Shown: in pieces, positions 914-28,201 of the stretch
How positions within the stretch are numbered: the first letter of the stretch is position 1
Layout: each line of letters opens with the position of its first letter
IMG/VR virus record: IMGVR_UViG_3300026290_000001
DNA from: a virus
DNA length: 64,000 bases
Direction: 5' to 3' (one strand)
Translations under genes and position numbers: made by a program
Notes under the pieces: generated by a model
What the model was told of the DNA's origin: nothing
The model's database searches: none
What the model saw: only the letters and a program-made list of their open reading frames with translations

Positions 914-1444
914 ATGAAAATAATAAATATATCGGGCAAGGCGCAACACGGGAAGGACACAACGGCATTAATTTTAAAAAAGAAATTAGAATCAAAAAAT
1001 AAAAAAGTTATAATAACTCACTATGCAGACCTACTCAAATATGAAGCAAAACAATTTTTTAATTGGGACGGAAATAAAGATGAAAAAGGTAGACAAATAC
1101 TTCAGTATATGGGTACTGATGTAATAAGAAAAATAAATCCTGATTATTGGGTTAATTTCATTAAAGAATTTATGTCAATGTTTGAAAATGAATGGGATTA
1201 TGTAATAATTCCTGATTGCAGGTTCCCCAATGAGATTGAAGTGTGGGGCATTGATAATTGGCCTAATGTATCGGTTAGAATTATTAGAGATAATTTTATT
1301 AGTAATCTCACTCCTGAACAATTAAATCATCCATCTGAAACTGCTTTAGATGATTATGAATTTGATTATTACATATTTAATTCTGATGATATAAATTATT
1401 TAAATAAAGAAGTAGATTATTTAGTTGAATGGCTGGAGGTATAA
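914..1444 (+). CDS. deoxynucleoside monophosphate kinase (T4 gp1-like)
   Basis: N-terminal P-loop ISGKAQHGKDTT, followed by LQYMGTDVIR, YVIIPDCRFPNE and HPSETAL. These occur in the same order as in T4 gp1-type dNMP kinases. Confidence 0.75.
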   Translation: MKIINISGKAQHGKDTTALILKKKLESKNKKVIITHYADLLKYEAKQFFNWDGNKDEKGRQILQYMGTDVIRKINPDYWVNFIKEFMSMFENEWDYVIIPDCRFPNEIEVWGIDNWPNVSVRIIRDNFISNLTPEQLNHPSETALDDYEFDYYIFNSDDINYLNKEVDYLVEWLEV

Positions 1445-2002
1445 ATGAAAAGAAAGTTTTTTATTGATTTTGATAATACAATTATAGATACAACCAACGC
1501 TTTCTGCGCAGTTTATAATGAGCTTTATTGCGATCATCCTAATTTTAAAACAGCAGAACCAGATCAAGTTAAGGTTTACAATTTTTCTGACGAATGTCCT
1601 TTAGTTACAAATGTAGAAGAAATTTTTACTCATCCATTATTCTTTCAATTTGCAGAATTTATAAATCACAATACATATGAAACTCTAGAAAAATTAAACA
1701 ATAAATATCAACTTATAGTATGTTCAATAGGTTGGCCTAAAAACTTAGCATACAAGGCACGTTGGTTGGAAGAAAAACTACCTTTTATTAAAGACTATGT
1801 TCTAATCAGTAATCCTACATGCAAAATGAATAAGAGCATTGTAAATATGGAAGGTGCAATATTTTTGGACGATATACCGTCAAACTTATATAGTTCAAAT
1901 GCTGAAAGAAAGATATTATTTGGTAAGAGATATATTTGGAATAAAGAATGGGATGGAGAATGGGTAAGAAGTTGGAGTGAAGTTGAAGGAAGGTTTTTGT
2001 AG
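1445..2002 (+). CDS. HAD-family 5'(3')-deoxyribonucleotidase-like protein
   Basis: HAD motif I FIDFDNTIIDT at the N-terminus and a later FLDDIPSN motif. Size and layout match NT5C-type nucleotidases. Start overlaps the upstream stop (TAAATG). Confidence 0.65.
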   Translation: MKRKFFIDFDNTIIDTTNAFCAVYNELYCDHPNFKTAEPDQVKVYNFSDECPLVTNVEEIFTHPLFFQFAEFINHNTYETLEKLNNKYQLIVCSIGWPKNLAYKARWLEEKLPFIKDYVLISNPTCKMNKSIVNMEGAIFLDDIPSNLYSSNAERKILFGKRYIWNKEWDGEWVRSWSEVEGRFL

Positions 2003-2054
2003 AAGAATTAAAATAGTAATATAAATATATGTTTATATAATAAACATTATTTAA

Positions 2055-2390
2055 GATTTAGTTAAATTTAGTTATAGGACAATCATAGGTGTTCATAAGT
2101 TTATATGGGAAAATGGTGAACCATATAGACCAAATTATTTAAGTGATTTATTTAAAAAGACAGTTACTGATAATAATTTACCACCAATAAGACTGCATGA
2201 TTTAAGACATACATTCGCAAGTGTAGCAAATGAATTAGGAGTTGGATTATATGATATTAGCAAAGCATTAGGTCATAGTCAAATAGGTACTACTAGCGAA
2301 ATATACACACATATGTTTGATAAGACCCATAAGAAAACCATTAGTAAAGTTGCCGATGCCTTTAAAGAAACAGAAAAAAATAAGGAATGA
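2055..2390 (+). pseudogene. C-terminal remnant of a tyrosine recombinase/integrase
   Basis: Open frame with no usable start near its 5' end. It translates to ..IRLHDLRHTFASVANELGVGLYDISKALGHSQIGTTSEIYTHM.., i.e. the HxLRHT box and catalytic-Tyr segment. The N-terminal two thirds of a normal integrase are missing. Confidence 0.7.
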
Positions 2391-2447
2391 TATTTCTACC
2401 ATTCCTTACATTCTTTATACATTTTTTAAAGTTATCCACAGGCTACA

Positions 2448-2511
2448 AATCCCAATATATAGGCATTTGTTTTTCTGAAAATCATGATAAAAACCTTATT
2501 TGGTTCAAATT
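2448..2511. repeat. Repeat A: 16-nt core AATCCCAATATATAGG plus 14-nt arm ATTTGGTTCAAATT
   Basis: The core at 2448-2463 is identical to 5033-5048 (direct). The arm at 2498-2511 is the exact reverse complement of 5065-5078. Lies between the integrase remnant and the holin stop codon. Confidence 0.7.
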
Positions 2512-2512
2512 A

Positions 2513-2872
2513 TTATCTAACTTGTTCTTTCCATGCATTTCCAAATTGCTTTTTCAATGTTTTTAAAGACGATTCAATTAAAATTTGAATTTCACTTTCA
2601 GTTAAAGCAATACCTTTTTTATTCAACATTTCCGATAAAGCAATAAATGCTTCTCTATATTTAGTTTGACCATCAACATCTTTAAAACTCTTTTGAACAT
2701 ATAAAACTGCAAGTCTAGCTAATTCTTGATTAGTCTGAATTTCATGATCAATCTTTTTAAGATTCTCTATACCTAATTTTTTCTTTAAAAGTGCAATTAT
2801 AAAATATGAAAAAATCAATCCTATGATATACATAATATTTAAAAATAATTCACTAATGATTTGATTATCCAT
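2513..2872 (-). CDS. holin, LL-H family-like
   Basis: Single N-terminal TM (IMYIIGLIFSYFIIALL) followed by a helical tail (ARLAVLYVQKSF..GQTKYREAFIALSEML..GIALTESEIQILIES), typical of LL-H holins. It is the last gene of the lysis cassette. Confidence 0.65.
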   Translation of the reverse strand: MDNQIISELFLNIMYIIGLIFSYFIIALLKKKLGIENLKKIDHEIQTNQELARLAVLYVQKSFKDVDGQTKYREAFIALSEMLNKKGIALTESEIQILIESSLKTLKKQFGNAWKEQVR

Positions 2873-2892
2873 ATGTAACCTCCCTCTACCCT

Positions 2893-3609
2893 CTACTTCT
2901 TCAATTCTTTAAGTAAATATTCAACGGCATTATCAATTAAAACAGCACATTCTATTCGTGTAATACTACTATTAGGATCTAAAATCCCATCGCCTTTACC
3001 AGAAAGTATTTTCTTCTCATATAATCTATCTGCACTTTTTGCTCCCCAATGATCTTTAGGCAAGTCTTTAAAATACTTTGACATTTCTTCAATCACCTTA
3101 CCTTTCAACAATTCCTTCTGAACTTCATTTTTAAATTTATCCCATGTCCAACCTAAATGACCTGCTCTTATTAAACGTGGACAATTTTTTCCATTCCAAT
3201 CCCAATGCTGTCTTAATGATTCTACATTTTTATTTTTAGATTTTAATAATTCTGCCACAAGTAAAACTGCATTTTCTAATGTTTTTTGGTAATTCCCACT
3301 TTCACATATTTCAATTCCTATACTACGTCTATTACCAGCACCACTTCCTCCATCTCCTGCGTGCCAAGCATTTTCAAATAAAGGAATACATTCAATTGCT
3401 TGTTTTTCATCAATGGCAATATGATAACCTGTAGAAGATGTATTTGAAGGATTGGTTAAATAATCTCTTTCATTTCTTGCAGTAGATTTTGAATTCCCTG
3501 TGTTGTGAATAGTAATATATTCCCAATCCATTTTATATTTTGGACGTTTATTAGAATTCATAGGAATGTGATCTATTACATAAGGAAAAGGTAAATTAAA
3601 TTTACTCAT
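2893..3609 (-). CDS. endolysin: N-acetylmuramoyl-L-alanine amidase (Amidase_2/PGRP) with C-terminal SLH domain
   Basis: Catalytic domain segments YITIHNTGN, GYHIAIDE, WHAGD and NCP. The C-terminus FKDLPKDHWGAKSADRLYEKKILSGKGDGILDPNSSITRIECAVLI matches the S-layer-homology motif. Confidence 0.85.
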   Translation of the reverse strand: MSKFNLPFPYVIDHIPMNSNKRPKYKMDWEYITIHNTGNSKSTARNERDYLTNPSNTSSTGYHIAIDEKQAIECIPLFENAWHAGDGGSGAGNRRSIGIEICESGNYQKTLENAVLLVAELLKSKNKNVESLRQHWDWNGKNCPRLIRAGHLGWTWDKFKNEVQKELLKGKVIEEMSKYFKDLPKDHWGAKSADRLYEKKILSGKGDGILDPNSSITRIECAVLIDNAVEYLLKELKK

Positions 3610-3873
3610 TTATTTTTCACCACCTTTAACTAATCTCTCAATAAAGTCCGTTCCAGCATATCCAACGGTAATAAAAACTATCATTATCAACTTGCTTGTT
3701 TCAACACCTAGTAAGGCAATAGCAGTTATAGTCCCAATAGCACAACTTACCAATAAACTTATAAATATTTGAGGTAAACTTTTATTGTTATTTACAACCA
3801 TTCGTAAGACTTGACCTGCCATTCCTAAGATTGCACCTAGCAAAATAAATGATTGAACTTCAAAAATATTCAA
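3610..3873 (-). CDS. holin-like small membrane protein
   Basis: 87 aa with three hydrophobic spans and a charged C-terminus (ERLVKGGEK). Its stop abuts the endolysin start, the usual holin-endolysin arrangement. Confidence 0.55.
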   Translation of the reverse strand: MNIFEVQSFILLGAILGMAGQVLRMVVNNNKSLPQIFISLLVSCAIGTITAIALLGVETSKLIMIVFITVGYAGTDFIERLVKGGEK

Positions 3874-3895
3874 TTTACCACCTCAGAATTAAAAA

Positions 3896-4192
3896 TTAAA
3901 TACTAGGAATATTGTCATTATCATCCAAAGTATTTATATCATTTATATTATTACTATAATCAGGTTTATCAGGCCAAGTATTATGTTTACTTAAATTTTC
4001 AAATAATGATTTTACACAATAAATTAATGTCACTCCGATTATTTGAATGACGATTTTTTCTGAAAGATTTTCAGCAATTTGTTCTCTTCCTAGAAAGGCC
4101 AATAAATAAGAAAGATAAACCCAAATTACGCTGTTAATCATTAATAAATAAACTATTCTTTTGCTAAATTCATCTATGTTAAATATTTTCAT
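3896..4192 (-). CDS. small membrane protein in lysis cassette
   Basis: Two hydrophobic spans (IVYLLMINSVIWVYLSYLLAFL and VIQIIGVTLIYCV) and an acidic tail. No family recognised. Confidence 0.4.
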   Translation of the reverse strand: MKIFNIDEFSKRIVYLLMINSVIWVYLSYLLAFLGREQIAENLSEKIVIQIIGVTLIYCVKSLFENLSKHNTWPDKPDYSNNINDINTLDDNDNIPSI

Positions 4193-4203
4193 AACTCACC
4201 TTC

Positions 4204-4428
4204 TCACAAACGTATTTGTTGATGACAACTTGGACAATGTTCAATAGGTGAAGCAGGATAAGTTATTATATAATAAATAACCCATAAAATTACTAATAAC
4301 CAAAACAATGGAGAACGAATAATAGTTGATAATATATTCCAAACTAAAAACAAGATACCTTGAATAAAAGATGTAGTTATATCTGTTATGTTATTAAAAA
4401 ATATATCTACTTTGTTTTTATATTTCAT
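4204..4428 (-). CDS. small membrane protein in lysis cassette
   Basis: 74 aa with two hydrophobic spans and a C-terminal CPSCH motif. No family recognised. Confidence 0.4.
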   Translation of the reverse strand: MKYKNKVDIFFNNITDITTSFIQGILFLVWNILSTIIRSPLFWLLVILWVIYYIITYPASPIEHCPSCHQQIRL

Positions 4429-4435
4429 AATCTAC

Positions 4436-4888
4436 CTACTTTAAAACCATACTTATCACTGCACCAAATCCCATAGACATTGCAATTATAAATAAATTCT
4501 TTAAAATATCTGATAATTTTATTTTATTATCACCACTTACTTCATCAATCTTCTTGCTTAATTTCTCCACACTAACTTCTGTACTGTTCATTCTATTGCT
4601 TAGTACGTCTAATGAATTACTGATCTTCGCTTGATTTTCACTAATTTCAGCAATCAATTTATCTCTTTTAATTCCGTCTTCTCTCTGTAATTTTGTGAGC
4701 AATTGGAGTTCGGACAAAACACTTGTAATATCATATATTTTGTTTGTTTGGCTTTCCAAATCATCTATACGGTGATTTGCCACCTTTATTTTTTCATCAA
4801 CATTCTTAAATACTTCGGCACAAATTTTTGGTTGTTCACATTCTTGATTTATGACCAATTCACAACACCATCCAATCTTTGTATTCAT
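4436..4888 (-). CDS. XhlA-like lysis-associated protein (coiled coil plus C-terminal TM)
   Basis: I place the start at the ATG at 4886-4888, preceded by AGGAGGA; the longer track ORF to 5017 has no RBS. Cys-rich N-terminus, HRIDDLES coiled coil and C-terminal TM FIIAMSMGFGAVISMVL. First gene of the lysis cassette, as xhlA is in PBSX. Confidence 0.55.
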   Translation of the reverse strand: MNTKIGWCCELVINQECEQPKICAEVFKNVDEKIKVANHRIDDLESQTNKIYDITSVLSELQLLTKLQREDGIKRDKLIAEISENQAKISNSLDVLSNRMNSTEVSVEKLSKKIDEVSGDNKIKLSDILKNLFIIAMSMGFGAVISMVLK

Positions 4889-4907
4889 TCCTCCTTTGCG
4901 GTATAAT
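4879..4907 (+). promoter_or_regulatory. sigma-A-type promoter candidate (TTGTAT-17 nt-TATAAT)
   Basis: -35 TTGTAT at 4879-4884, a 17-nt spacer, and -10 TATAAT at 4902-4907. Overlaps the antisense RBS and start of the XhlA-like gene and points away from it. Confidence 0.45.
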
Positions 4908-4913
4908 GGGTAC

Positions 4914-4996
4914 AAGGTAATTAATTTGACCGCAAAATTAATTACCATAACGAATAAGGCAGGATACCTATTTTTATCCTGCCTTATTTTTATTTT
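4914..4996 (+). ncRNA. candidate ~80-nt small RNA, antisense to the leader of the lysis cassette
   Basis: Lies downstream of the 4879-4907 promoter. Perfect 12-bp hairpin GGTAATTAATTT/AAATTAATTACC (4916-4946). Then a 10-11-bp GC-containing hairpin (4956-4985) followed by ATTTTTATTTT on the plus strand, an intrinsic terminator in the plus orientation only. No plus-strand ORF. Confidence 0.4.
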
Positions 4997-5032
4997 ATTA
5001 AATTTAAAAAATCTCAAAAAATCATTTTTAAG

Positions 5033-5097
5033 AATCCCAATATATAGGGATTTCTAAACCCGAAAATTTGAACCAAATTAAAGATTTGTTATGATAC
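5033..5097. repeat. Repeat B: partner of repeat A
   Basis: 5033-5048 equals 2448-2463 (direct). 5065-5078 (AATTTGAACCAAAT) is the reverse complement of 2498-2511, with an imperfect extension to about 5097. Lies 16 nt past the stop of the recombinase gene. Confidence 0.7.
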
Positions 5098-5112
5098 AAA
5101 ATAAAAACATAA

Positions 5113-6117
5113 TTATTGATAGAAATATTGAGTATAACTTTGTTGCTTGTGTTCAAACGTTTGTTTTGCGTAAATGCCCGTAGTTTGAATATCATCATGA
5201 CCTAAAAGTTCTTGTAATACCGACATTGGACAACCGTTATTTAGCATCAAGGTTGCGAAAGTATGTCTGAGCATATGGGGATGAGTTCTCTTGTCAAGCC
5301 CTGCACGTTTACCTATTGCTGCTATTTCTCGTTGAATACCTCGATTGCTTAATCTTCTATATTCCTGCCGTTCTGTTACAAATAATGCTTCACAGTCATC
5401 CTTACGACTTTCAAGATATTTTTTAAGGTAAATTGCAGCTCTAGCAGAATAGAATACAATTCGCTCTTTGTTTCCTTTGCCTAATACCTTAATCGTCCGA
5501 TTTGATTGTCCTATATCATCTTTATTTAGTGCCGATATTTCAGATAATCGACAACCTGTTGAATACATAATTTCAGTTAATGCTTTTTCTCGCAAAGTGA
5601 AACAACTTTCACGGAATAGTTCCAATTCTTCAATTGTTAATGCCTTTGCCATTGCTTTTCCCACTTTATAAGGTTTAATTCTAATCATCGGATTTTCTTC
5701 AATAATCTGTTCCTCACAAAGCCATTCAAAGAAACTGCGAAGTACTGAGCGAATTGTCTCAACAGTACTTTTAGCATTTACTGTTGGGTCGCTTTCCCGA
5801 TCATCCAGATAGTTAATTATGTCCTGCTTGGTTATTTCATTTACTGGTTTTTCTTCGGTTCTATCGGTAAATATTTTAAGATGAAGTCGATAATTATCAA
5901 TAGTTATTGGACTTAATCCTTGCCGTTTTTTATCCTTCAAAAACAGTTTTATGTTTTTCCGCAAATTATAATATTCTGGATCGCTGTTTTGTTTTATAAC
6001 TCTGTATTCATCAAGAATGGAGGCTAATTGATTTTTAGCCTCCATCTTATTCATGCCTTTTTCTATGATTCCATCTACAATTTTAGCATATAGCTCATAA
6101 TTGAGATTAGGGTGCAT
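5113..6117 (-). CDS. tyrosine recombinase (XerC/XerD-like phage integrase family)
   Basis: N-terminal SAM-like core-binding domain (ITIDNYRLHLKIF, TIRSVLRSFFEWL). Catalytic segments TGCRLSEI, HPHMLRHTFAT and LGHDDIQTTGIYA. RBS AAAGGAGG upstream. Confidence 0.9.
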   Translation of the reverse strand: MHPNLNYELYAKIVDGIIEKGMNKMEAKNQLASILDEYRVIKQNSDPEYYNLRKNIKLFLKDKKRQGLSPITIDNYRLHLKIFTDRTEEKPVNEITKQDIINYLDDRESDPTVNAKSTVETIRSVLRSFFEWLCEEQIIEENPMIRIKPYKVGKAMAKALTIEELELFRESCFTLREKALTEIMYSTGCRLSEISALNKDDIGQSNRTIKVLGKGNKERIVFYSARAAIYLKKYLESRKDDCEALFVTERQEYRRLSNRGIQREIAAIGKRAGLDKRTHPHMLRHTFATLMLNNGCPMSVLQELLGHDDIQTTGIYAKQTFEHKQQSYTQYFYQ

Positions 6118-6218
6118 AGAATACCTCCTTTTATTTAGTTGTTACTGAAGGTTCATAGTCTACTGCGAAGTAACTTCTTAATACACATTTGCGAAGTCAG
6201 AAAACTTTTTAACCAATA

Positions 6219-6335
6219 TCAAACAACCCCGACAATTTCTCTAACTTTTTCCCTATACATATTAGGCACAAAATCAATTATAATTCGCCCACTTTCTACT
6301 GCATATACCCACATTCCTAATATAGCTTCACTCAT
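6219..6335 (-). CDS. small hypothetical protein (38 aa)
   Basis: Not in the ORF track (under 60 aa). ATG at 6333-6335 preceded by AAAAGGAG; translates MSEAILGMWVYAVESGRIIIDFVPNMYREKVREIVGVV*. Its position after the fibre genes resembles xkdX-type mini-genes, but the family is not confirmed. Confidence 0.35.
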   Translation of the reverse strand: MSEAILGMWVYAVESGRIIIDFVPNMYREKVREIVGVV

Positions 6336-6385
6336 ATCATTCATCTCCTTTTAGATTAAACAATTCGGTTCTTAACATATCGATT

Positions 6386-6616
6386 TCAGCCATCATCAAA
6401 GTGAGTAGAAGTGCTATTCCTTCTGCATCTTCGTTGAAAGCCAACTTCGATATAGTCATTCTTGTTGAACACTTGCTCATCATATTCCCAACCACTAAAC
6501 CCCTTCATGGCGTCAATATCTTCTTCCTCAATTCGCACTATATTCGTCCGAACATAGACTGTATCAGCATTCACTTCAATGGGCTTAACTGTTTCCTGTG
6601 TCCCTCTTATTCTCAC
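6386..6616 (-). CDS. hypothetical protein downstream of the fibre genes
   Basis: 76 aa with TVYVRTNIVRIEEED..FSGWEYDE, as seen in small post-fibre proteins. The last ~15 residues (RRCRRNSTSTHFDDG) look atypical, so the 3' end may be frameshifted. Confidence 0.4.
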   Translation of the reverse strand: MRIRGTQETVKPIEVNADTVYVRTNIVRIEEEDIDAMKGFSGWEYDEQVFNKNDYIEVGFQRRCRRNSTSTHFDDG

Positions 6617-6691
6617 GCTTTATCACCTCTTTATAGTATTTTCCTTGATAGGCTTCTATTCGACCCATTCGACCAATTACCACTGTTATTA

Positions 6692-7843
6692 TTAAAAATA
6701 CACGAGGCGAGCGCCGATAACCGAATACTTTTCAGACTCCGAATAACCCACATGCAGCCGAAACGCCCCCGCCTTATCCGCAGCCGACCAATCACCACCG
6801 AAACGCGGCAAGCGCGAAACATTCAGAACCGCGGAATCGGGATAATGCGTGCTTTCGCTTCCGTTTGCTGTTTTGACGATAAAACCCGTTTCCGTACCAC
6901 CTTGTATGTCGTCTATGTAACCGACTATATTCGTTGTCGCACCCTGTCCGTAATTTGTATATCCAGAACCAATATCGTTAAAACTTTCATTGCCGATTAG
7001 GATGTTTCGGTCTGCATCACTAAATAATCCGTCAATCCAATAGTAAATATTACCCCAAAAATCTTCTATGCCACAAAATTTTAATTGTTGTTTTCCTGTA
7101 GTTTCACCATAGAACATACCTTTAGCATTTGTAGCACCCGTATTAACTTTGGCACTATTCCCATCGACATAACCTCTGCCTAAAGCAGTTTGCCAATCCC
7201 TACTCTTAAACATCACCGTACCTAAGACTTGCAACATTAAAAGTTGAAAATAAGCCATTTGGTCATAACCACTGCCATTCGCCTGTGCAATAGTTCTAAA
7301 TGCACCGATAGTTTCATAAGCGGTTGTTATTTTTCCGCTTAAACTTCTTAATTTAGAACCGTCAGAATATCCTAAATAAGCTGAAATGTAACACTTGGCT
7401 TTTTCGGTTGTACCCCTCATATGTGCTAAACATTTATACCCACTATCTACCTTTGCATTAGCATATCTTACATACAAGTCAGTCCCAATGGTTTCAAATT
7501 TCCACCAAATCTTAGGAAATTCAATCATTACGTCACCATCTGCACCACTTGTAATGTCTGCATTTGTCCCGTCAATTTTTTTAGTATAATCGTTTGGATT
7601 TAGATAGTATTGCACCACTCCATTTTTAAGTAAACATGGTTTAATCTGATTAAATGGAAACTTGTCTTGCCAACTACCATAAGAAAAATTGCCATTATTT
7701 CCTTGGGCTGGAGTAAAACCTATTGCATTATCTGTATAGGCTAAAGCAGTTTCGGGGTTGCTATTTGTAGTATCAATTTTGATGCCATATATTTTAGGTG
7801 GTGATTTTACTGGTTTTCTTTTCCTAATTAATGCCTCACCCAT
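6692..7843 (-). CDS. receptor-binding protein with C-type-lectin/FGE-like fold and Mtd-like (DGR-target-type) C-terminus
   Basis: FWGNIYYWIDG resembles the GNVWEW motif of FGE/CLec folds. The C-terminus RFGGDWSAADKAGAFRLHVGYSESEKYSVIGARLVYF parallels the Bordetella-phage Mtd variable region (FGGNWNN..NIGARGV). Locally GC-rich and A-poor. Confidence 0.6.
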   Translation of the reverse strand: MGEALIRKRKPVKSPPKIYGIKIDTTNSNPETALAYTDNAIGFTPAQGNNGNFSYGSWQDKFPFNQIKPCLLKNGVVQYYLNPNDYTKKIDGTNADITSGADGDVMIEFPKIWWKFETIGTDLYVRYANAKVDSGYKCLAHMRGTTEKAKCYISAYLGYSDGSKLRSLSGKITTAYETIGAFRTIAQANGSGYDQMAYFQLLMLQVLGTVMFKSRDWQTALGRGYVDGNSAKVNTGATNAKGMFYGETTGKQQLKFCGIEDFWGNIYYWIDGLFSDADRNILIGNESFNDIGSGYTNYGQGATTNIVGYIDDIQGGTETGFIVKTANGSESTHYPDSAVLNVSRLPRFGGDWSAADKAGAFRLHVGYSESEKYSVIGARLVYF

Positions 7844-8686
7844 TTACCTCACCACCTTTAGCTGAATTGGCAAACTAACTTCAGGTTTATCCATCGCATA
7901 TAATGTTATAGAATTATTAGCAGTTGTTACACGATAAATTTTACCCCACTCATTTACTCGTTCTTTATCTGTAGCAAATGTGCCACTCATTACTACGTCA
8001 ACTATAGGATTGTCATTTGACGATATTCCAGTTACCGTTTGCGTTTTCGTATATGGGGCTTCTGTACCTGTCCAAGTAGTATCAAGTGTTGTCGTAAGCG
8101 TAGCGTGATATACGTGTCCTAATTTACTTATTGTCGCACCATCTGCCAGATGGTTAGCAAACTTTTTCCCAACCCCACTAACCAAAGGTCTTTTATCGAC
8201 AATTATATTTACAGTTTTATCCGCATTTGTACTAATAGTACCAATTAATAGACTTCCATCTGTAATTGTTCCATCTATACTACTAGCAAAATTTCCATCA
8301 TTTTTAAGATATATAGTATAGGTTATACTGGCCGATACTGGATTAATAGTAAAAGTTGTATCAGATGTTTTAGTTATAGTATTTATTGTATTTCCACTAA
8401 ATGTTTCACCAGTACCACTAGCAATAACTATACTTAATGTATCTGTACCACTCGTATAAAATGCAGATTTTATTCTAAATGGACTATCCAATTCTAATGA
8501 ATTTAATAAAAATCTCGCATCTTTCCATGTTGCTCCTAAATCTCTAGGATCAGTACCACCTAAAGTAACATTTGCATCATCAGCAACATGGATAATATCT
8601 AAACCACTATATTTATTTCTAATTTCTGCTACTTGCTCATCTGTATGTATAGCAAATACTTTGCTATTTTTAATTACACAAATCAT
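7844..8686 (-). CDS. tail fibre protein (short paralogue)
   Basis: Residues ~70-181 are homologous to residues ~106-219 of the neighbouring 587-aa fibre (..TDTLSI.I.SG.GE.F....NTITKTSDTTF.INPVSAS.TY.IYLKNDGNF..). The C-terminal domain is distinct. Confidence 0.6.
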   Translation of the reverse strand: MICVIKNSKVFAIHTDEQVAEIRNKYSGLDIIHVADDANVTLGGTDPRDLGATWKDARFLLNSLELDSPFRIKSAFYTSGTDTLSIVIASGTGETFSGNTINTITKTSDTTFTINPVSASITYTIYLKNDGNFASSIDGTITDGSLLIGTISTNADKTVNIIVDKRPLVSGVGKKFANHLADGATISKLGHVYHATLTTTLDTTWTGTEAPYTKTQTVTGISSNDNPIVDVVMSGTFATDKERVNEWGKIYRVTTANNSITLYAMDKPEVSLPIQLKVVR

Positions 8687-8705
8687 AAATTTATATCTCC
8701 CTCCT

Positions 8706-10469
8706 TTACACTATTATCCATGAACCTTTATTTCCCTCAGAATTAGGTTCAGGAGAGAAAATAGGACTGCCACTATAATTAGAACAACGTACATATCCAT
8801 TGTTATATGCAAATATATCAATTAAACCTGCATCACCAACATTAGAATTTGAAGCAAATAAAGAACCTTCTTCACAACAATCTATATTGTATTCCACATT
8901 GTTTTTTGCAATAATTCCCGAACTAAATCCTTTTCCACCATTATTAACTGTTAATCCTGATTTATTTCCACAAACACATATATTTTCTGCCATCATACCC
9001 CCACCAGTAGAATCATAAGCACCTTTTTCAGAATTACCATTTGCTATACAATTATTTATATAAATCCCTGCGAAATTGGAACATTCATAACCATTTTCAT
9101 TATTGGAAGATGCTGTATATGGTGCAGTAATACCTGCTCTGTTAGTTACAAAAAAACCAGATTTAAAACCAGATACTCCAACATTTGTACCACAAGTTAT
9201 GCTTGCGCCTGTTGTTGATAATATTCCATAATTAGTACTAGCATTAGAACCAATAATTGCAACATTATTTAATAATCCTAATTCAGAACGGTCAGCAACA
9301 ATACCATTACAATTTGTAAATTTTAACGTTGTAGTTAAAACAACAAAATCTCCACCCGTTAATGCAACAGCAGGGAATGGAGTACCTTGAAAAGTATTTT
9401 TAACCGTTACTACGTTTCCATTTATATTTATAATTTCATACATTCCACGTAAAACTTCATGATTACCTGTGCCTGTAGTATTTTTTATAATAGCATATTG
9501 TCCTACTTGCATACCTACTGCACTAGCAACTGTTATAGGTACAGACCAATTTCCAGCAGTATCAGAAACACTACCTACGTTTGAAACGGTTGTGGCAATA
9601 GGAGTAGCACCAATTATTCTTATATTAGAACCATTAACATGATTTATTTTAAGTTGAGAAGTATGTTCATACATTTCTGTTAATAAAGAAATAGTTACAG
9701 TAGTTGAACTAGTTATACTAGCAGTTTTTATACTATCTAAAGCATTTGGTATTGTAGTAAAATCACATCCAGTAGAGCCAACAGTTATAGTTTTATTGGC
9801 ATCTATAATAGTATCTGTTAAATGTTTAATAAATTCACTACCTACAGCACTAACTAAAGGTCTTTTATCAGTAATTGTATTTATAGATTTATCTGCATTG
9901 GTACTAATTGTTCCTATTAAAATACTTCCATTTGGAATACTACCATTTGTACTTTTATCAAAATTACCATCATTCTTTAAATAAATATTATAGGTCACGC
10001 TAGCACTTACTGGATTAATATTAAAAGTAGTATCAGATGTTTTTGTAATAGTGTTTAAAGTAGTACTATTAAAACTTTCACCTGAACCCGAAGTAATTAT
10101 TATTGATAAAGTATCTGTTACTGAATTATATTCAGCAGATTTTATCTGAAACGGATACCCATATACATCTTCTACATTACTTTTTAAACTATCATGATCA
10201 TATGCTGTAAATAATCTTCCTATTATCGTTCCATTACTCCATGTCTGTGCTGTCCCTTGAAATCCCCTAGTTACACCAACCAAACTACTACCACTTTTAT
10301 CTGTATATAAAATAGTTTCTGCATTATTACCAGTTCCTATAGTAGCAAGATTAGGTGCATTGGGAAAAACTGAAATATCAGTTACGGGGATGGTAGTTGC
10401 AATACTATTTATATCAGAAGAAAGTGTTGTAAGAGGGGAGTTAATTTTAGCATTATACATTGTTTCCAT
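8706..10469 (-). CDS. tail fibre/tailspike with C-terminal parallel beta-helix
   Basis: N-terminus of the widespread prophage-fibre type (ATIGTGNNAETILYTD..VTRGFQGTAQTWSNGT..TAYDH). The C-terminal half consists of Gly/Asn-rich ~22-aa turns (NCNGIVAD, NVAIIGSNAS, GASITCGTNVG, NNCIANGNS), typical of PbH1 beta-helix depolymerases. Confidence 0.7.
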   Translation of the reverse strand: METMYNAKINSPLTTLSSDINSIATTIPVTDISVFPNAPNLATIGTGNNAETILYTDKSGSSLVGVTRGFQGTAQTWSNGTIIGRLFTAYDHDSLKSNVEDVYGYPFQIKSAEYNSVTDTLSIIITSGSGESFNSTTLNTITKTSDTTFNINPVSASVTYNIYLKNDGNFDKSTNGSIPNGSILIGTISTNADKSINTITDKRPLVSAVGSEFIKHLTDTIIDANKTITVGSTGCDFTTIPNALDSIKTASITSSTTVTISLLTEMYEHTSQLKINHVNGSNIRIIGATPIATTVSNVGSVSDTAGNWSVPITVASAVGMQVGQYAIIKNTTGTGNHEVLRGMYEIININGNVVTVKNTFQGTPFPAVALTGGDFVVLTTTLKFTNCNGIVADRSELGLLNNVAIIGSNASTNYGILSTTGASITCGTNVGVSGFKSGFFVTNRAGITAPYTASSNNENGYECSNFAGIYINNCIANGNSEKGAYDSTGGGMMAENICVCGNKSGLTVNNGGKGFSSGIIAKNNVEYNIDCCEEGSLFASNSNVGDAGLIDIFAYNNGYVRCSNYSGSPIFSPEPNSEGNKGSWIIV

Positions 10470-11687
10470 TTACTCTATCACCCCTTCATAATTAACCTTC
10501 CAAACATCATTAACTTTGCCATAGATGCCAATGATAGGTTTCCATTTTCCATTAATTTTTACATAAACATTATTAATATTTTTCCAATTACCATTTACTT
10601 TATAAATCAGCGCAGTATTGTAAACTGAAATATCATTAATATTTAATAATAAATTATCATTAGCATTGGTTTCTACAAATACATTTGTAGTTTCATGTAT
10701 ATTTATATTTAAACTATCATTAGAATTAATATCAACATTTTTGTGAATATAACTTTCATTAATAGACAATCTAATTGAATCAGTTATATTATTAGATGCA
10801 GTTAAATTATTTACATTATCCGTTGAAGAAATATTTAATGTATCACTAACATTTGGCAAGGCAGTAACATTTGCATTGTCAGCACAATAAATATTAATAG
10901 CATCATTTTTATTAAACTCATTAATAGTTAAATCTATGCCATTAATATCTAAATTTTCAGATGTGCTAATATCTACCAATATATTTTTGGTTTCATTTAC
11001 ACCTATATTTAAATTATCACCAGTATTTATATTAGTAATTAATTGACTTTCTTCGGTAATATCTAAATATAAATTGTTTTCAATATCCTTGGATAATACT
11101 AATAAAGAATCTTCTTGTAGATTGATATCTAAAGAATCTTCTAGGTTTAAAGAAATATATGATGATTCATCTATTGTTAAATTAATATCATCTTCTACTT
11201 CAATGTTTTTATCTAAATTATTAGTTTCACTTAATGATAAATCAAGATCGTCATAAGTTTTTATATTGTAAGCATCAGGAGAATCCCATATAGATAATTC
11301 TTGTATATTTATAGACAAAGAATCATTAACATTTATATTTACATTTAATGATTGCGAATCACTTACAGTTAAGTTAAGTGCATCTTGAAGTGTATTAGTT
11401 ACTTCTAAATCCGAAACATCATTTAGTGTAATTATAGGCGGGTCAGTACCTGAAGCATTTACAAGCCTTTCACTTTCCTCTACAGATGTAATAATTAAAT
11501 TGTCAGAAACACTAAAAGTCCAAATTTTATTACTTTCTTCAGTTATAGTTATTGTTAATTCATCATGTACATTTATTTCTATAACTGCTGATTCTGTAAT
11601 ATTTAGTGTTAATTCATCCGAAGAGGAAGATGATATATCGTTTAATGTGTTGAAAGATGTTTGGTTAAAACGTCCTTGATTAAACAA
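10470..11687 (-). CDS. repetitive acidic fibre-like structural protein
   Basis: About 25 iterations of an 11-12-aa unit of the form D-x-L-x-I-x-I-x-E-x-S (DELTITITEES, DSLSINIQELS, DSLDINLQEDS, DSLNINIHETT). The C-terminus has a triple NGxWK motif. Confidence 0.5.
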   Translation of the reverse strand: MFNQGRFNQTSFNTLNDISSSSSDELTLNITESAVIEINVHDELTITITEESNKIWTFSVSDNLIITSVEESERLVNASGTDPPIITLNDVSDLEVTNTLQDALNLTVSDSQSLNVNINVNDSLSINIQELSIWDSPDAYNIKTYDDLDLSLSETNNLDKNIEVEDDINLTIDESSYISLNLEDSLDINLQEDSLLVLSKDIENNLYLDITEESQLITNINTGDNLNIGVNETKNILVDISTSENLDINGIDLTINEFNKNDAINIYCADNANVTALPNVSDTLNISSTDNVNNLTASNNITDSIRLSINESYIHKNVDINSNDSLNINIHETTNVFVETNANDNLLLNINDISVYNTALIYKVNGNWKNINNVYVKINGKWKPIIGIYGKVNDVWKVNYEGVIE

Positions 11688-11747
11688 TAAATATCACCTC
11701 CTCATTAATTAAAAATAGGACTATATATAATTTTTATATTAATAATA

Positions 11748-12128
11748 TTAACTAATATTAATTGTAAGTGTTACGGTAAGAAGCCAGTTTCCACCGGATT
11801 TTGTGCCTAAATTTTCCACCTTCCTATTCAACATAACTCCTCCACTAGAAGCATTAAAAACTCCCCATTCCTGCCATGCAAAATTAGCATCAGTAGTTCC
11901 AAAACTAGATTTAAATACTAACTGATTATTAGTTCTTGTAGGGAAAGTGGCTTCCATGCCCTTTCTTACTTTGTTAGAACTTGCTTGTAAATCAATCTGT
12001 GAAGCTGCAAAAGCAGTAGTAGAATCACCGACTCCGATATGCGAATTTGTCGAATTAAAGAATACGGGTGAATCATCATTAATTATACAAGCTGCTATAA
12101 AATCTCTACCACTATTTGTTAATGCCAT
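11748..12128 (-). CDS. conserved phage tail-associated protein (function unknown)
   Basis: 126 aa with the pattern MALTNSGRDFIA..IGVGDSTTAF..Q.DLQA..NKVRK..ANFAWQEWGVFN..GGVMLNR, recalled from prophage fibre clusters. No named family assigned. Confidence 0.45.
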   Translation of the reverse strand: MALTNSGRDFIAACIINDDSPVFFNSTNSHIGVGDSTTAFAASQIDLQASSNKVRKGMEATFPTRTNNQLVFKSSFGTTDANFAWQEWGVFNASSGGVMLNRKVENLGTKSGGNWLLTVTLTINIS

Positions 12129-12192
12129 TTTTATAATTCCTCCTTAAATTTATATTTGTAAAATAATAAATAATTTAATAAATATTTAAATA

Positions 12193-12372
12193 TTAAATAT
12201 TAAAACCCATATCTTTTAAATTATCTTCTGATGCCATAAAATCATCTTCAGATATAATAACTTCAATGGGTTTTACCAAACCTTTATCAATTTGTTCCTG
12301 TGTTGCCCAATCAGGATATTTTTCTAATCTGAGCGTTGCTTTCATGCTAATTCCCATTTTTTCATTATTCAT
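12193..12372 (-). CDS. small hypothetical protein (59 aa)
   Basis: Not in the ORF track. ATG at 12370-12372 downstream of AAGGAGG; translates MNNEKMGISMKATLRLEKYPDWATQEQIDKGLVKPIEVIISEDDFMASEDNLKDMGFNI*. Confidence 0.4.
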   Translation of the reverse strand: MNNEKMGISMKATLRLEKYPDWATQEQIDKGLVKPIEVIISEDDFMASEDNLKDMGFNI

Positions 12373-12435
12373 AAAATCTAATAATTACCTCCTTATTTTT
12401 CTAGTATATTTATATTAATAAAATAATTAATATCT

Positions 12436-12942
12436 TTATTCTTGATAGACGAACCAAATGTCCCCATCCTCACCGTCTTCATTACTAGGTTGTACAGTAG
12501 AAAATATAAAATGGTGTGCAGAAGTTTGTATTATATCTTCAAGTGTTTCTTTAATATCATAAGAACCACTACCATTAGATTGAAAACTACTATAAATCCT
12601 ACTTGCGGGTATATAAACTCCACCACTACCATAAAAAGAAAATTGTAATATACTTCCACTTACATCAGGATGAAAATAAACGTATCCATATACATAATCT
12701 ACTTTATATGTACCAATTTTACTTTCTGTGTCTAATGTAGGAAAACCATCAACAATTTCATACCACTGGTAAGTTTCCAATCCAAAATTACCCATGACCT
12801 GAACTTTATTTTGCCTATGCGGAATTTCTGATAATATTACTAATCCATTTATTATTTTTTTATATTCACTTAATGAAACTAAAGGTTGCTCATTATTACC
12901 TCTTCGTATTGAAATAAAAGGATCATAAAAAATTTGATTCAA
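12436..12942 (-). CDS. tail/baseplate-associated protein
   Basis: TTG start after GGAGGTG. 168 aa with YKVDYVYGYVYFHPDVSG, resembling N-terminal anchor domains of fibre/baseplate proteins. Call rests mainly on position. Confidence 0.45.
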   Translation of the reverse strand: MNQIFYDPFISIRRGNNEQPLVSLSEYKKIINGLVILSEIPHRQNKVQVMGNFGLETYQWYEIVDGFPTLDTESKIGTYKVDYVYGYVYFHPDVSGSILQFSFYGSGGVYIPASRIYSSFQSNGSGSYDIKETLEDIIQTSAHHFIFSTVQPSNEDGEDGDIWFVYQE

Positions 12943-13104
12943 AATTTATCACCTCCAACCTAATTTTTCAAAAAATAGAAAAATCAAAAATGTTCAAAAA
13001 TTTATCTTCTGTTTTCTCTTGTTTTCTTCCATTTACTCTGTTTTTCAAGCACAAAATTTGAATAAAAGGAATATTTTATTGTTGAGCCAAGAACACTCGT
13101 GACT

Positions 13105-14397
13105 TCAGTCATGAGATGAATTGGCTCTGTTCTGTTCATATATAATCCATGATTTTCTTGCATTAATTCTTTGCATGTTAGATATTTTCGGTGTCTTCAT
13201 ACCTCTGGGTGCATTACTAAAATCTATTTTTTCACCATCTATACCCATAAGAATGGCATAACCCGTAGACATTCTACCTTTAATAAAATATTCATTACCT
13301 ATATACCTTACTTTATCAAACTTCCTAAATCCTTCTATTTTACCTGTAGGTATCTTCTGATGACTTCTTACTCCTTTTGCCTGTTGGTAATCGCCTTTAG
13401 GGATACACTTTTTTAATACAGCTTTTTCAGTTTTAAAGCTTACATCAATTAACCCTATATCTTCAATATTATTTAAACAGGCAATAGCTACAGCATCGTA
13501 GTAATGCTCTTTTGGTAATCCCATTAGCTGTCTATGTTCTTTGGTAATAAATCCAAAGGTTTCTTTTGCATTTGGTAGCTGTCTTAATAATTGTTGTCTT
13601 ATACTATTCATCTGTGTTGTGTGTTTTAATTGTCCTTTAATTTTACCATTCTTCTTTAATTTAATTCCTCCTTTGTGCAAACTATTATGACAAGTTTTAC
13701 AAAGTGTAATTAAATTTTCTGCATCATCTGAGCCACCATTTTTTCTAAAAACTATATGATGTACCTCTAATCTGCTGTCTTTACTTTTTCCTTTGCAATA
13801 CTGGCAAATATATTTATCTCTACTTAATACATAAGCTTTAGTATTAGCAAATCCATAATTAGTTCCTTTTTGATAAAGCCATTTATTACTTAATACTGCT
13901 GGATTTTTTAAAGCATGTGGGTCAAATGTTGCTGTTTCTATTATTATATTTGTAATGGGCATTATTGATTTTGCAAAATCAATTTCTTTTAAGTGTGAAT
14001 TAATTTTACTTGTCATTGTAGGAGAAAATCTATCTTTTTTAATGCTGTTTTTCCTATTATTAAATCTAGGTTCCCTATATCTAGTTTTCCTATTCCTTCT
14101 AGTTCTCCTATATTTAGCTCTTTTGTCCATTTTGTCAGATATATCATTTCTAATTTCTACTTCTGATATATAATACACTTCATTTTCGTCATTTGCTACT
14201 GCACTTCCTATTTTACTACTACCAGTATCAATTCCTAAAGTTAAATCTTGTGTATAGTCTGTAGCATGATATAGTAATTTAATTGTAAATGGAGTTCTTC
14301 TTATGCATTTTGCTTTACCATCTTTTAACAATAATCTTGCTATTGCTGGTTTACAAGGCATTAAAGGACTCCCATCTTCATTAATTACATAAACCAT
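13105..14397 (-). CDS. iscB: IscB RNA-guided endonuclease (PLMP-RuvC-bridge helix-HNH-RuvC)
   Basis: Domains in order: PLMP (SPLMPCKPAIARLLLKDGKA), RuvC-I (LGIDTGSSKIG), Arg-rich bridge helix (RAKYRRTRRNRKTRYREPRFNNRK) and RuvC-II (IIIETATFD). Then HNH (CQYCKG..EVHHIVFRKNGGSDDAENLITLCKTCHNSLH), RuvC-III (EHYYDAVAIA) and a C-terminal beta domain (FDKVRYIGNEYFIKGRMSTGY). Confidence 0.9.
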   Translation of the reverse strand: MVYVINEDGSPLMPCKPAIARLLLKDGKAKCIRRTPFTIKLLYHATDYTQDLTLGIDTGSSKIGSAVANDENEVYYISEVEIRNDISDKMDKRAKYRRTRRNRKTRYREPRFNNRKNSIKKDRFSPTMTSKINSHLKEIDFAKSIMPITNIIIETATFDPHALKNPAVLSNKWLYQKGTNYGFANTKAYVLSRDKYICQYCKGKSKDSRLEVHHIVFRKNGGSDDAENLITLCKTCHNSLHKGGIKLKKNGKIKGQLKHTTQMNSIRQQLLRQLPNAKETFGFITKEHRQLMGLPKEHYYDAVAIACLNNIEDIGLIDVSFKTEKAVLKKCIPKGDYQQAKGVRSHQKIPTGKIEGFRKFDKVRYIGNEYFIKGRMSTGYAILMGIDGEKIDFSNAPRGMKTPKISNMQRINARKSWIIYEQNRANSSHD

Positions 14398-14681
14398 AAA
14401 ATCAAATCCTTTCGGATAAATACTCTGCTTAAAAGCAGGTTATGCGTATCTATATACTATTACCATATATAGAATTCGTCCTCATCTCGACAATGATAAA
14501 ATAGCTTATATGTATATCACACCGAGCCTTACCCTCCAACTCTACTTAGTGATATACGATAGAGCAATGGTCTGATGCGTCAACCAAAGGTATCATAACT
14601 ATTCTATCGTAGTATAAATTTCTCTATACTAAGTCTGGTGAACTTAGACTTTAGAAGCCTCCGACTTTAGTCGGGGGTAGT
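14398..14681 (-). ncRNA. candidate IscB omega-RNA scaffold
   Basis: Non-coding and visibly GC-richer than its surroundings, directly upstream of iscB. Minus-strand helices: CCCCCGAC/GUCGGAGG, AAGUCU/AGACUU, long-range CUACGAUAGA/UCUAUCGUA, CUGCU/AGCAG, and AUCC-GAAA-GGAU just before the start codon. Confidence 0.6.
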
Positions 14682-14927
14682 TCACTCTATTTCAGGATTG
14701 ATAGATAAATCATCTTTGCTTGTACTATTTACATTAGATAAATTATCTTCATTGGACAAATCATCATTAATAATTTGACTTAATTCGTCTATTTTAGAAC
14801 TTAATTTGATAATCTCTATCTGATACATATTATTTTGTAAACATAAAGTGACTACATCTAAGGGCAAATTACTATTGTTTATTAACTCTGCCAGTTTAAT
14901 ATTAAAATCACTTATAATAAAAATCAC
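14682..14927 (-). CDS. hypothetical protein
   Basis: 81-aa acidic ORF in the minus-strand tail array. Its TGA stop (14682-14684) directly abuts the omega-RNA-like region. Confidence 0.4.
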   Translation of the reverse strand: MIFIISDFNIKLAELINNSNLPLDVVTLCLQNNMYQIEIIKLSSKIDELSQIINDDLSNEDNLSNVNSTSKDDLSINPEIE

Positions 14928-27082: not shown

Positions 27083-27163
27083 AATAATCACTTCCTTTTG
27101 ATTGTATGATTATATTATATGCGAAAAGGGGAGTGAAAATTAAGATAAAATGAAGTTTCTATC

Positions 27164-28201
27164 TTACAAATCACTTAAAGATTTATTTTCTACTTGTTTA
27201 ATCCCATCTTCATCAAAATACTTACCTAATTCCTCATCTATCTCAGTGTCATTATATAATGACACCATATTCGTACTCTCCCAGCCAACTACATCTTTAA
27301 TTACATCTGCTGGAATATTTGCTTGGCAAAGTGCGGTTGTAAAATAATGTCTATTTGAATGCCAATACCAATCTATACCTAAAATATTAGAAAAAGTTAT
27401 TGCCCAAGAATTTAATAAAGATATAGTGCCTGGTTTCCATACACTATTTCTTTTATTCCAAAATAACTCTTCCCCTTCAATGCCTAATTCTTCACGTTGC
27501 TTCATCCATAAATCAAAATAAGGTTTAAATTTAGAAACCAAGATATACCTATAAATCATTTTACCCTTAGAACTTCTACCCTTTGTTTTTATCTTTTCAG
27601 GAGTTTTATATAAAGCACCGTATTTAATATTTTCTTCTGTAAAATGACTTACTTTAAACCTTAATAATTCTGCCTTTCTTGATCCACTACTTACTGCCAA
27701 TGCAACTGCACATGCTTGTTGATATTTGCCTTTTTCAACTAAATAATTAAGCAATTCGTCAACTTGTTCATCTGCAAGGACAGTTTTATCCCTAACATTT
27801 ACTTTTACTGGTGCAGGGATTTTATTAACTATATTGCGAAAATTAGGGTGAATGTCATCTAGCATTGCCTCTATATAATTAGACATACTACTAATTGCTG
27901 ACTTCAATCTTCTTACTCTATTAGGACTAAGATTTTGTGTATTCACAAGCCAATTCTGATATTTTAAAATATCACGTTTAGTAAAATCTATAAAAAATTT
28001 ATTATCATTATATTGTAAATTCCATACCCAACAAATTTCAATATCATTTTCATAACCTTTTATAGTGGCATGAGACATATCTTTCCCTCTGCAATAATCT
28101 AAAAATTCATTAAGTAAATCTTTATTTTCTTTTGAAACTCGTTTCCACAATTCAGGAGTTACAATTGTATGTTGTTCGGTTTTCCTTGCGATTATAATCA
28201 C
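27164..28201 (-). CDS. tyrosine recombinase embedded in the tail module
   Basis: Catalytic segments SSGSRKAELL, WHSNRHYFTT and GWESTNMVSLY, plus a core-binding-like N-terminus (ATIKGYENDIEICWVW). The start is non-canonical: the GTG lies inside the SD-like AAGGAAGTG, and ATC occupies the position where the sibling leader has ATG. Confidence 0.8.
   Translation of the reverse strand: MIIIARKTEQHTIVTPELWKRVSKENKDLLNEFLDYCRGKDMSHATIKGYENDIEICWVWNLQYNDNKFFIDFTKRDILKYQNWLVNTQNLSPNRVRRLKSAISSMSNYIEAMLDDIHPNFRNIVNKIPAPVKVNVRDKTVLADEQVDELLNYLVEKGKYQQACAVALAVSSGSRKAELLRFKVSHFTEENIKYGALYKTPEKIKTKGRSSKGKMIYRYILVSKFKPYFDLWMKQREELGIEGEELFWNKRNSVWKPGTISLLNSWAITFSNILGIDWYWHSNRHYFTTALCQANIPADVIKDVVGWESTNMVSLYNDTEIDEELGKYFDEDGIKQVENKSLSDL

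Follow-up and report, generated by a model that had tools for sequence, protein, structure and literature searches.

A probable hypervariable host-range slot, composed of separately circulating modules, between the tail-fibre and lysis genes of a large phage

Phages are known to exchange the C-terminal modules of their fibres and receptor-binding proteins (RBPs) at conserved junctions, a mosaicism described for gp37/38 of T-even phages, the side fibres of lambdoid phages and the RBP heads of lactococcal P335 phages. Free-standing homing-endonuclease genes follow a pattern in which a single sharp-bordered gene is present or absent in near-identical phage genomes. In the Rin shufflon of Bifidobacterium prophages, the RBP genes of the late operon are immediately followed by that of an armless XerD-like tyrosine recombinase (PMC6109161), and Xer-like recombinases of unknown function are found in the structural modules of large Bacillus phages, among them Tyrovirus gp50 and a protein of Perkons (PMC9703825). 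Here we describe a locus that can be set beside these systems, in a stretch of 64,000 nucleotides from the virus record IMGVR_UViG_3300026290_000001, hereafter the window. Between its tail-fibre and lysis genes, a block of about 3 kb encodes the head of a 280-amino-acid (aa) fibre, a 383-aa RBP, two small open reading frames (ORFs) and a 334-aa tyrosine recombinase, rec334.

We read positions 5061–8168 as one allele of a hypervariable host-range slot, a composite of separately circulating modules that are swapped at conserved flanks, and put the probability of this reading at about 0.72. The slot would sit at the distal end of the tail-fibre operon, between the end of a fibre shaft, ...DKRPLVSGVG, and two dyad elements, Q and P, that precede the lysis genes, and phages of the lineage would carry differing contents there, exchanged by recombination at the conserved flanks. 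The present allele would consist of three modules: a fibre-head domain of about 100 aa; an RBP of the Mtd/TaqVP fold with two small downstream genes, descended from a diversity-generating retroelement (DGR) minus its template repeat (TR) and reverse transcriptase (RT); and an Xer-type recombinase unit of 1.06–1.11 kb, which would move between phage genomes independently. The locus would illustrate, in a natural case, how a large phage rebuilds its host range, through a slot bounded by a breakpoint in coding sequence on one side and by a non-coding dyad on the other.

The block is compositionally foreign. G+C is 37.1% over 5113–8150 and 28.3% in the rest of the window, a z-score of 4.0 against non-overlapping 3038-nt windows (mean 0.282, s.d. 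0.022, maximum 0.340), and the richest 3-kb window of the entire 64 kb begins at 5151. Sliding windows of 300 nt give 0.33–0.48 over 5101–8250 and 0.22–0.32 on either side, and a two-state likelihood scan of 1001–14000 places the best-fit segment at 5141–8190. A preliminary description of the window had reported a G+C-richer block of about 3 kb with edges at 5113 and 8144–8200, with a recombinase, two small ORFs, an RBP and a fibre head as its contents and with a repeat at the recombinase stop codon, and all of these observations stand; the repeat lies at 5033–5095 and has a second copy at 2448–2511. Because third codon positions carry the excess, amino-acid content alone does not explain it: the G+C content at these positions (GC3) is 0.25 in rec334, 0.24 in orf41, 0.39 in orf76 and 0.31 in the gene of the 383-aa protein, against 0.10–0.19 in most sampled backbone genes, and the gene of the 280-aa fibre is itself split, with 0.25 over 7844–8146 and 0.106 over 8147–8686. 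The peak of 48% G+C at 6600–6900 corresponds to the A-poor 3′ end of the 383-aa gene. Raw tetranucleotide frequencies deviate as well, with windows starting at 5001–7501 holding six of the seven most deviant places, but once corrected for base composition the block is no longer the most extreme and the anomaly is therefore essentially one of G+C.

On comparison with sister phages, the edges of the slot are true recombination breakpoints. One sister phage, L031 (a 135,631-bp contig with about 86% identity to the window), follows the window collinearly as far as 8160, with 86.7% identity there, and does so again from 5086. Between these points it carries 2.3 kb of unrelated DNA comprising a different fibre head, an 83-aa ORF (orf83) and a 327-aa recombinase (rec327), which is of the same family as rec334, is 45% identical to it and is AT-rich with a native-like GC3 of 0.146. 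L032, another relative, has 92.6% identity and departs from the window at 8154, and its contig shows no recombinase before the contig end. The left breakpoint is thereby placed at about 8154–8168, after the DKRPLVSGVG motif encoded at 8168–8197, directly beyond which alignment identity collapses.

The right edge is formed by the dyad elements at 5022–5095, with Q at 5065–5095 (core AATTTGAACCAAATT) and the core of P, the palindrome TTAAGAATCCC-AATATATA-GGGATTTCTAA, at 5033–5052. Breakpoints lie to either side of Q: with L031 the break is at 5086, the right arm being shared and the left arm different, and with L036 it is at 5061, the left arm being shared and the right arm different. Identity to L031 is 94.7% over 4993–5086, compared with about 86% for the backbone, and Q/P is kept in L031 and in L033–L035 whatever the slot content. 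In the last three, Q/P and the lysis gene after it are unchanged and the upstream sequence differs: L033 carries small ORFs, the junction motif and a single copy of a 27-nt repeat, with no recombinase within about 0.3 kb before Q/P, and in L034 and L035 a fibre end and a 47-aa ORF directly precede Q/P. The 27-nt repeat, ATATTAAAA(C/T)TATAATATAAAT(G/A)TATT, flanks the rec327 gene in L031 as direct repeats (L031 11690–11716 and 12770–12796) and is single in the recombinase-less L033; it may be a promoter that doubles as a recombination substrate. At least four to five slot alleles exist within one lineage.

The exchange at the left edge is seen in the 280-aa fibre (7844–8686, minus strand). Its N-terminal part and shaft (8147–8686) are native to the backbone, and its head (7844–8146, approximately residues 180–280, ending SLPIQLKVVR) lies in the G+C-rich block. 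Four orthologues of this fibre, P0242–P0245, have residues 1–178 in common at 74–85% identity and then carry four unrelated heads, one of them a fused domain of the 383-aa type, and the head swap at the shaft is therefore real. The head domain is a widely shared fibre-tip module that, at 49–84% identity, also terminates many fibres with unrelated N-terminal parts, and none of 24 IMG/VR loci with the domain has the RBP or the recombinase downstream. Judging from fold and family, the head and the RBP would set adsorption specificity. As in the mosaic exchange of fibres in other phages, a constant N-terminal shaft bears interchangeable heads, breakpoints lie at a conserved motif and the backbones are near-identical. 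Here, by contrast, the exchanged stretch does not stop at the fibre gene: it also covers a second RBP gene, the small ORFs and the gene of a recombinase, up to a conserved dyad element in non-coding sequence. The shaft sequence at 8141–8440 is repeated at 9813–10112 with 75% identity.

The recombinase gene (5113–6117, minus strand; 5113–6168 with its 51-nt leader) matches Pfam Phage_integrase (PF00589) with 141.5 bits (cut-off 27.1; E = 3e-41) and SAM-like N-terminal domains, and its translation shows the motifs RLSE, HMLRHTFA and LGHDDIQTTGIYAK. It passes the NCBIfam model NF040815, which carries an XerA-type/‘integron integrase’ name (229.7 versus a cut-off of 220), and falls below those for XerC (TIGR02224, 217.8 versus 335) and XerD (TIGR02225, 199.5 versus 330); the best PDB matches are XerA 4a8e and XerD 1a0p. 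Together these scores indicate an Xer-like enzyme that is not an orthologue of XerC or XerD. Models specific to integron integrases are not reached (TIGR02249, 95.9 bits versus 265; PRK15417, 51.6 versus 435), the Pfam domains are the SAM-like core-binding and catalytic ones only, with residues 1–55 matching nothing, which does not fit a lambda-type integrase, and the tyrosine chemistry sets rec334 apart from the serine invertases of the Gin/Cin/Min type. A first guess that the 334-aa ORF was the RT of a DGR was ruled out by the Pfam assignment and by finding no TR.

Two comparisons mark the recombinase gene as a unit exchanged independently of its neighbours, and as the most mobile piece of the block. 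A 93%-identical protein is encoded in L022–L026, an unrelated group with 43% G+C, between fibre genes and genes for the distal tail protein Dit. DNA identity there is 86% over exactly 5113–6168, which takes in the coding sequence with its stop codon and the 51 nt ahead of the start codon, and the left junction motif GCAGTAGAC at 6158–6168 is abutted by three other unrelated sequences within the group. In L036, the unit is 99.7% identical over 5061–6167, whereas the adjoining RBP gene is only 74% identical. The borders of the unit lie accordingly at 6167/6168 on one side and at 5113 or 5061 on the other. Since 117 of the 145 differences between rec334 and its L022 copy are at codon position 3, the gene is judged to be functional, intact and under purifying selection; 96 of the 145 are A/T in the window and G/C in L022, as if the gene had shifted towards A+T relative to that copy. 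L022–L026, a siphovirus group with backbones 97–99% identical, have a variable slot of their own after the fibre gene (for example, L022 9384–9949), with three fillings between a ...VNNHLA(E/D)T fibre motif and the GCAGTAGAC junction.

The enzyme has roughly 2,800 homologues. In phiCp-D, TPELB_ph1, L031, L036, L041 and L042, a recombinase of the same family occupies the interval between the lysis genes and the last fibre gene or small ORF. Because a large serine integrase is encoded as well in TPELB_ph1 and L041, the Xer-type enzyme is unlikely to serve those two phages as lysogeny integrase. We consider rec334 to be most likely an accessory, self-spreading late-operon recombinase that acts on nearby dyad sites, and probably neither the engine of whole-block movement nor a lysogeny integrase. 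In its orientation with the late genes and in the dyad site just past its stop codon it resembles Tyrovirus gp50; unlike gp50, it sits at the fibre/lysis junction rather than before the tape-measure gene, some close relatives have it and others do not, and it has recently been transferred by itself. It resembles free-standing homing-endonuclease genes in being far more similar between phages than its flanks are and in sitting between conserved late genes, but it is a tyrosine recombinase and not a nuclease. In the literature searched, we found no description of a recurrent Xer-type recombinase at the fibre/lysis junction, where the gene behaves as mobile. A second intact tyrosine recombinase gene of the window (27164–28201, minus strand, 345 aa, phrog_1 at 1.6e-35) lies immediately upstream of the 2014-aa tape-measure gene, and its stop codon is spanned by a 19-nt imperfect inverted repeat with a 6-nt spacer (27132–27175). 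A recombinase before the tape-measure gene is the position described for Tyrovirus gp50 (PMC9703825).

It is possible, though we think it rather unlikely, that rec334 has nothing to do with host range and is a housekeeping Xer-type enzyme, for integration or for the resolution of genome or plasmid-prophage multimers at palindrome P. Its membership of the Xer family fits this, as does the 11-8-11 palindrome 46–80 nt past its stop codon, and Xer-like genes in the structural modules of large Bacillus phages have a putative 11-6-11 site after the stop codon (PMC9703825). The position is filled likewise in seven phages, one of which, phiCp-D, encodes ParM in the manner of a plasmid. Several observations speak against it: L033–L035 have Q/P and show no recombinase in the 0.3–0.4 kb upstream, L036 has the same recombinase and Q without P, and neither P nor Q is near the 93%-identical enzyme of L022–L026. 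For the same reasons we rejected P and Q as sites belonging to rec334 itself. The serine integrases of TPELB_ph1 and L041 also speak against an integration role, and no prophage form was found, Q plus half of P having no match in 185,579 reference genomes, a weak test in that an exact 30-mer was required.

A related idea extends to many Firmicutes phages: that the recombinases between their last fibre gene and lysis genes make up an element class of their own, either as a self-mobilising ‘recombinase-only’ element or as an integron-like exchange enzyme. We regard it as unlikely. In the integron-like form, fibre and RBP cassettes would be joined at short shared cores, for which the GCAGTAGAC junction and the Q dyad are candidates; both have unrelated left and right arms beside them in different phages. 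Were the enzyme to act on such junction cores, phages would have a further, new way of exchanging cassettes, and it could possibly serve as a tool for swapping RBP modules.

The preliminary description had gone further in a different direction, proposing that the head, an Mtd-like RBP, the small ORFs and the recombinase were acquired together by recombination within the conserved shaft, as a single mobile host-range cassette (5113–8200) whose own tyrosine recombinase inserts the block site-specifically into fibre genes. Its fibre-head swap at the conserved shaft is borne out by P0242–P0245, and its Mtd-like RBP by the structural matches given below. The whole stretch is replaced relative to L031 and G+C-rich throughout, L036 has the same gene order including the almost identical recombinase, and phiCp-D has a 37%-identical recombinase behind a distantly related RBP domain (22% identity). 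The proposal is right in part: the block is a foreign allele exchanged by recombination, with its left crossover in the shaft, but it is a mosaic. A single cassette inserted by its own recombinase we hold to be quite improbable. Identity to L036 is very uneven along the block; the recombinase unit is found by itself, with an unchanged left border, in other phages; the RBP with orf76 is found without any recombinase in L019 and L020 and beside an RT in L037 and Perkons; and the head occurs without either. The left breakpoint falls inside a conserved coding motif and is shared by L032 and by L031, which has another recombinase, and repeat and k-mer searches found no direct or inverted repeats or recombinase target sites bracketing 5100–8200. 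Candidates for short cores common to the breakpoints were considered, namely a match of 10 nt in inverted orientation in L026, one of 9 nt in direct orientation in L023 and TGAACC/GGTTCA around rec334, and were set aside as too short and inconsistent.

Phase variation of the Rin or shufflon type, in which the recombinase would invert DNA to join alternative fibre or RBP C-termini to a constant N-terminus, is very improbable. The arrangement recalls the Bifidobacterium Rin locus with its armless XerD-like recombinase (PMC6109161): rec334 follows the RBP gene on the same strand at a distance of 575 nt, and constant N-terminal parts are combined with variable C-terminal ones. Assembly breaks and single-nucleotide polymorphisms (SNPs) also cluster in 7315–8216. 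Unlike in Rin, however, there are no alternative cassettes within a genome, no repeated rix-type sites and no inversions, and variation is between genomes. All ORFs in 5113–11687 are co-directional, on the minus strand, with no head or RBP segments in reverse orientation; no 10- or 11-mer is present more than twice in 5000–10600 and few 12–13-mers occur twice; the fibre region has no convincing inverted repeats; and the contigs compared within this phage (eight loci, out of 15 contigs on record) are all collinear. Among near-clonal contigs, six of the seven SNP positions found over about 18–20 kb lie in 7315–8105, and independent assemblies break at 7984, twice at 8216 and also at 6161 and 6509; the clustering of SNPs and assembly ends over 7315–8216 suggests population heterogeneity at the fibre head and RBP.

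The 383-aa protein (6692–7843, minus strand) belongs to phrog_5302, ‘tail protein’ (1e-74). Its AlphaFold model, with a pLDDT of 92.8, finds TaqVP 5vf4 (2.8e-10) and Mtd 1yu0–4 (2.5e-4) as best Foldseek matches. Coding-strand A falls to 13.8% in 6692–6850, compared with 35.3% in the remainder of the gene, and the last 58 residues have an entropy of 1.85 versus 1.08 bits, hypervariable around invariant scaffold residues, which would place a former variable region (VR) at roughly 6692–6865. Homologues in L037 (74% identity) and phage Perkons (44%) are followed by an RT with VR/TR pairs, and these pairs served as positive controls (79% in L037, 77% in Perkons). No second copy of 6692–6950 was found in the 64-kb window, nor of the 18-mer at the 3′ end of the variable region in the 99.6-kb IMG/VR contig, and the window holds no RT-like ORF: tblastn with the L037 and Perkons RTs recovered only a 17-residue relic at 6609–6659. 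Both RTs match in the spacer that follows the RBP gene, and L019 keeps the same relic. This 75-nt spacer reads YQGKYYKEVIKREN in one frame, against RT C-termini of YSNKYYREVIKNENI and then a stop in L037 and NYYKEVIKND in Perkons; the relic of the RT 3′ end in this spacer (6609–6691, minus strand) shares sequence with the ribosome-binding site and the beginning of the gene that follows.

Taken together, the fold, the A-poor hypervariable end, the homologues linked to RT and TR, the RT relic and the lack of TR and RT in the window indicate that the 383-aa protein is a fossil DGR target that has lost both and is now, as sequence and model suggest, a fixed RBP. It shares the fold and the A-poor hypervariable C-terminus with Mtd of Bordetella phage BPP-1 and TaqVP of Thermus, and its homologues retain TR and RT, but here these have been deleted, leaving the last 17 or so RT codons. 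An active DGR that mutates the protein and accounts for the G+C peak, although in keeping with the fold, the A-poor hypervariable end and the RT-linked homologues, is hardly credible with no template repeat in the window, no RT there beyond the relic and a variable region that is identical in all compared contigs of this phage. It represents a DGR target ‘frozen’ by the loss of TR and RT and yet still traded as a receptor-binding module. Tentaclins (PMC10743442) were considered for the 383-aa protein and rejected, as their lectin domain is N-terminal and the family is different.

The small gene after the RBP gene (6337–6616, minus strand; phrog_18126) consists of orf76 (6386–6616) and the overlapping orf52 (6337–6495). 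Relative to three compared homologues of 76–108 aa, which read through and whose C-terminal part corresponds to the orf52 frame, it is frameshifted near 6445, and the compared contigs show base substitutions only, with no indels that restore the frame. The ORF in the corresponding place after the RBP is 47–60% identical to orf76 in L019 and L036 and 43% identical in L020, where an ORF matching Pfam XkdX comes next. The second small ORF, orf41 (6219–6344, minus strand), is conserved, with a 54%-identical ORF of 40 aa at the same position in L036; it gives no match to Pfam XkdX (PF09693) even at E values up to 5 and is like the XkdW/XkdX of Bacillus tail modules in position only.

Several points weigh against the slot reading. 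The eight compared loci of this phage are collinear and no rearrangement was caught among them; the relatives L032–L036 are short metagenomic contigs, and for L033–L035 the missing recombinase rests on 0.3–0.4 kb of sequence only. L036 repeats the linked order of head end, RBP, two small ORFs and recombinase, an order that would also fit joint acquisition in a single event, with the recombinase gene converted later. The role and substrate of rec334 are ones that we infer, and Q/P could serve the lysis genes as promoter, operator or terminator instead of being a site of recombination.

Beyond Q/P lies the lysis cassette (2513–4948, minus strand). P occurs only twice in the window, and the second P/Q copies are at 2448–2511, at the far end of the cassette, with P at 2448–2467 (19/20) and Q inverted at 2496–2511. 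The 2.6-kb cassette is therefore bracketed by direct copies of P and inverted copies of Q. The second P copy is absent at the corresponding place in L031. Inversion or excision of the cassette between the copies was considered, and no contig shows an inverted or deleted form. Just outside is a truncated recombinase gene (2076–2390, plus strand) with a native-like GC3 of 0.17 that encodes the C-terminal 104 aa (Pfam Phage_integrase, 1.3e-11); the idea that it is a displaced orthologue of the L031 enzyme was rejected, the similarity being confined to the catalytic motif. The 27-nt motif that flanks rec327 in L031 recurs, weaker, at 2006–2029 before this gene. A strong hairpin with a 15-bp stem and a T-run on the plus strand, kept in L033 and L034, is found at 4952–4989, just upstream of the first ORF of the lysis cassette, where the nearby genes are on the minus strand. 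That first ORF after Q/P (4436–4948), which encodes a 170-aa coiled-coil/membrane protein, has a GC3 of 0.28, higher than its neighbours, and because it is only 75–82% identical to its orthologues it may be another exchanged piece.

On the other side of the slot, the 280-aa fibre gene is preceded in the operon by those of a 587-aa fibre (8706–10469, minus strand) and a 405-aa fibre (10470–11687, minus strand). Two contigs from metagenomes of the anaerobic-reactor type, 135,317 and 135,335 bp long, contain the identical region (99.99% identity) and encode YomG-/YomF-type tail proteins, NrdD, dUTPase and an amidase with SLH domains. Pfam YOMG_N and YomF_N fall on neighbouring genes, and with a genome of about 135 kb and the 2014-aa tape-measure protein the backbone is of the SPbeta type. 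A blastn search with 4400–10500 against 50,697 phage records gave a single 88-nt match only, and IMG/VR searches with the 587-aa fibre and with the head alone returned this phage only; L039 was rejected as a chance 18-mer match. Upstream of the fibre genes, L031 homology jumps from 14687 to 13079, and an HNH endonuclease gene (430 aa, 13105–14397) is an insertion relative to L031; in sequence, the gene at 13080–14686 looks like a free-standing homing-type endonuclease within the tail module.

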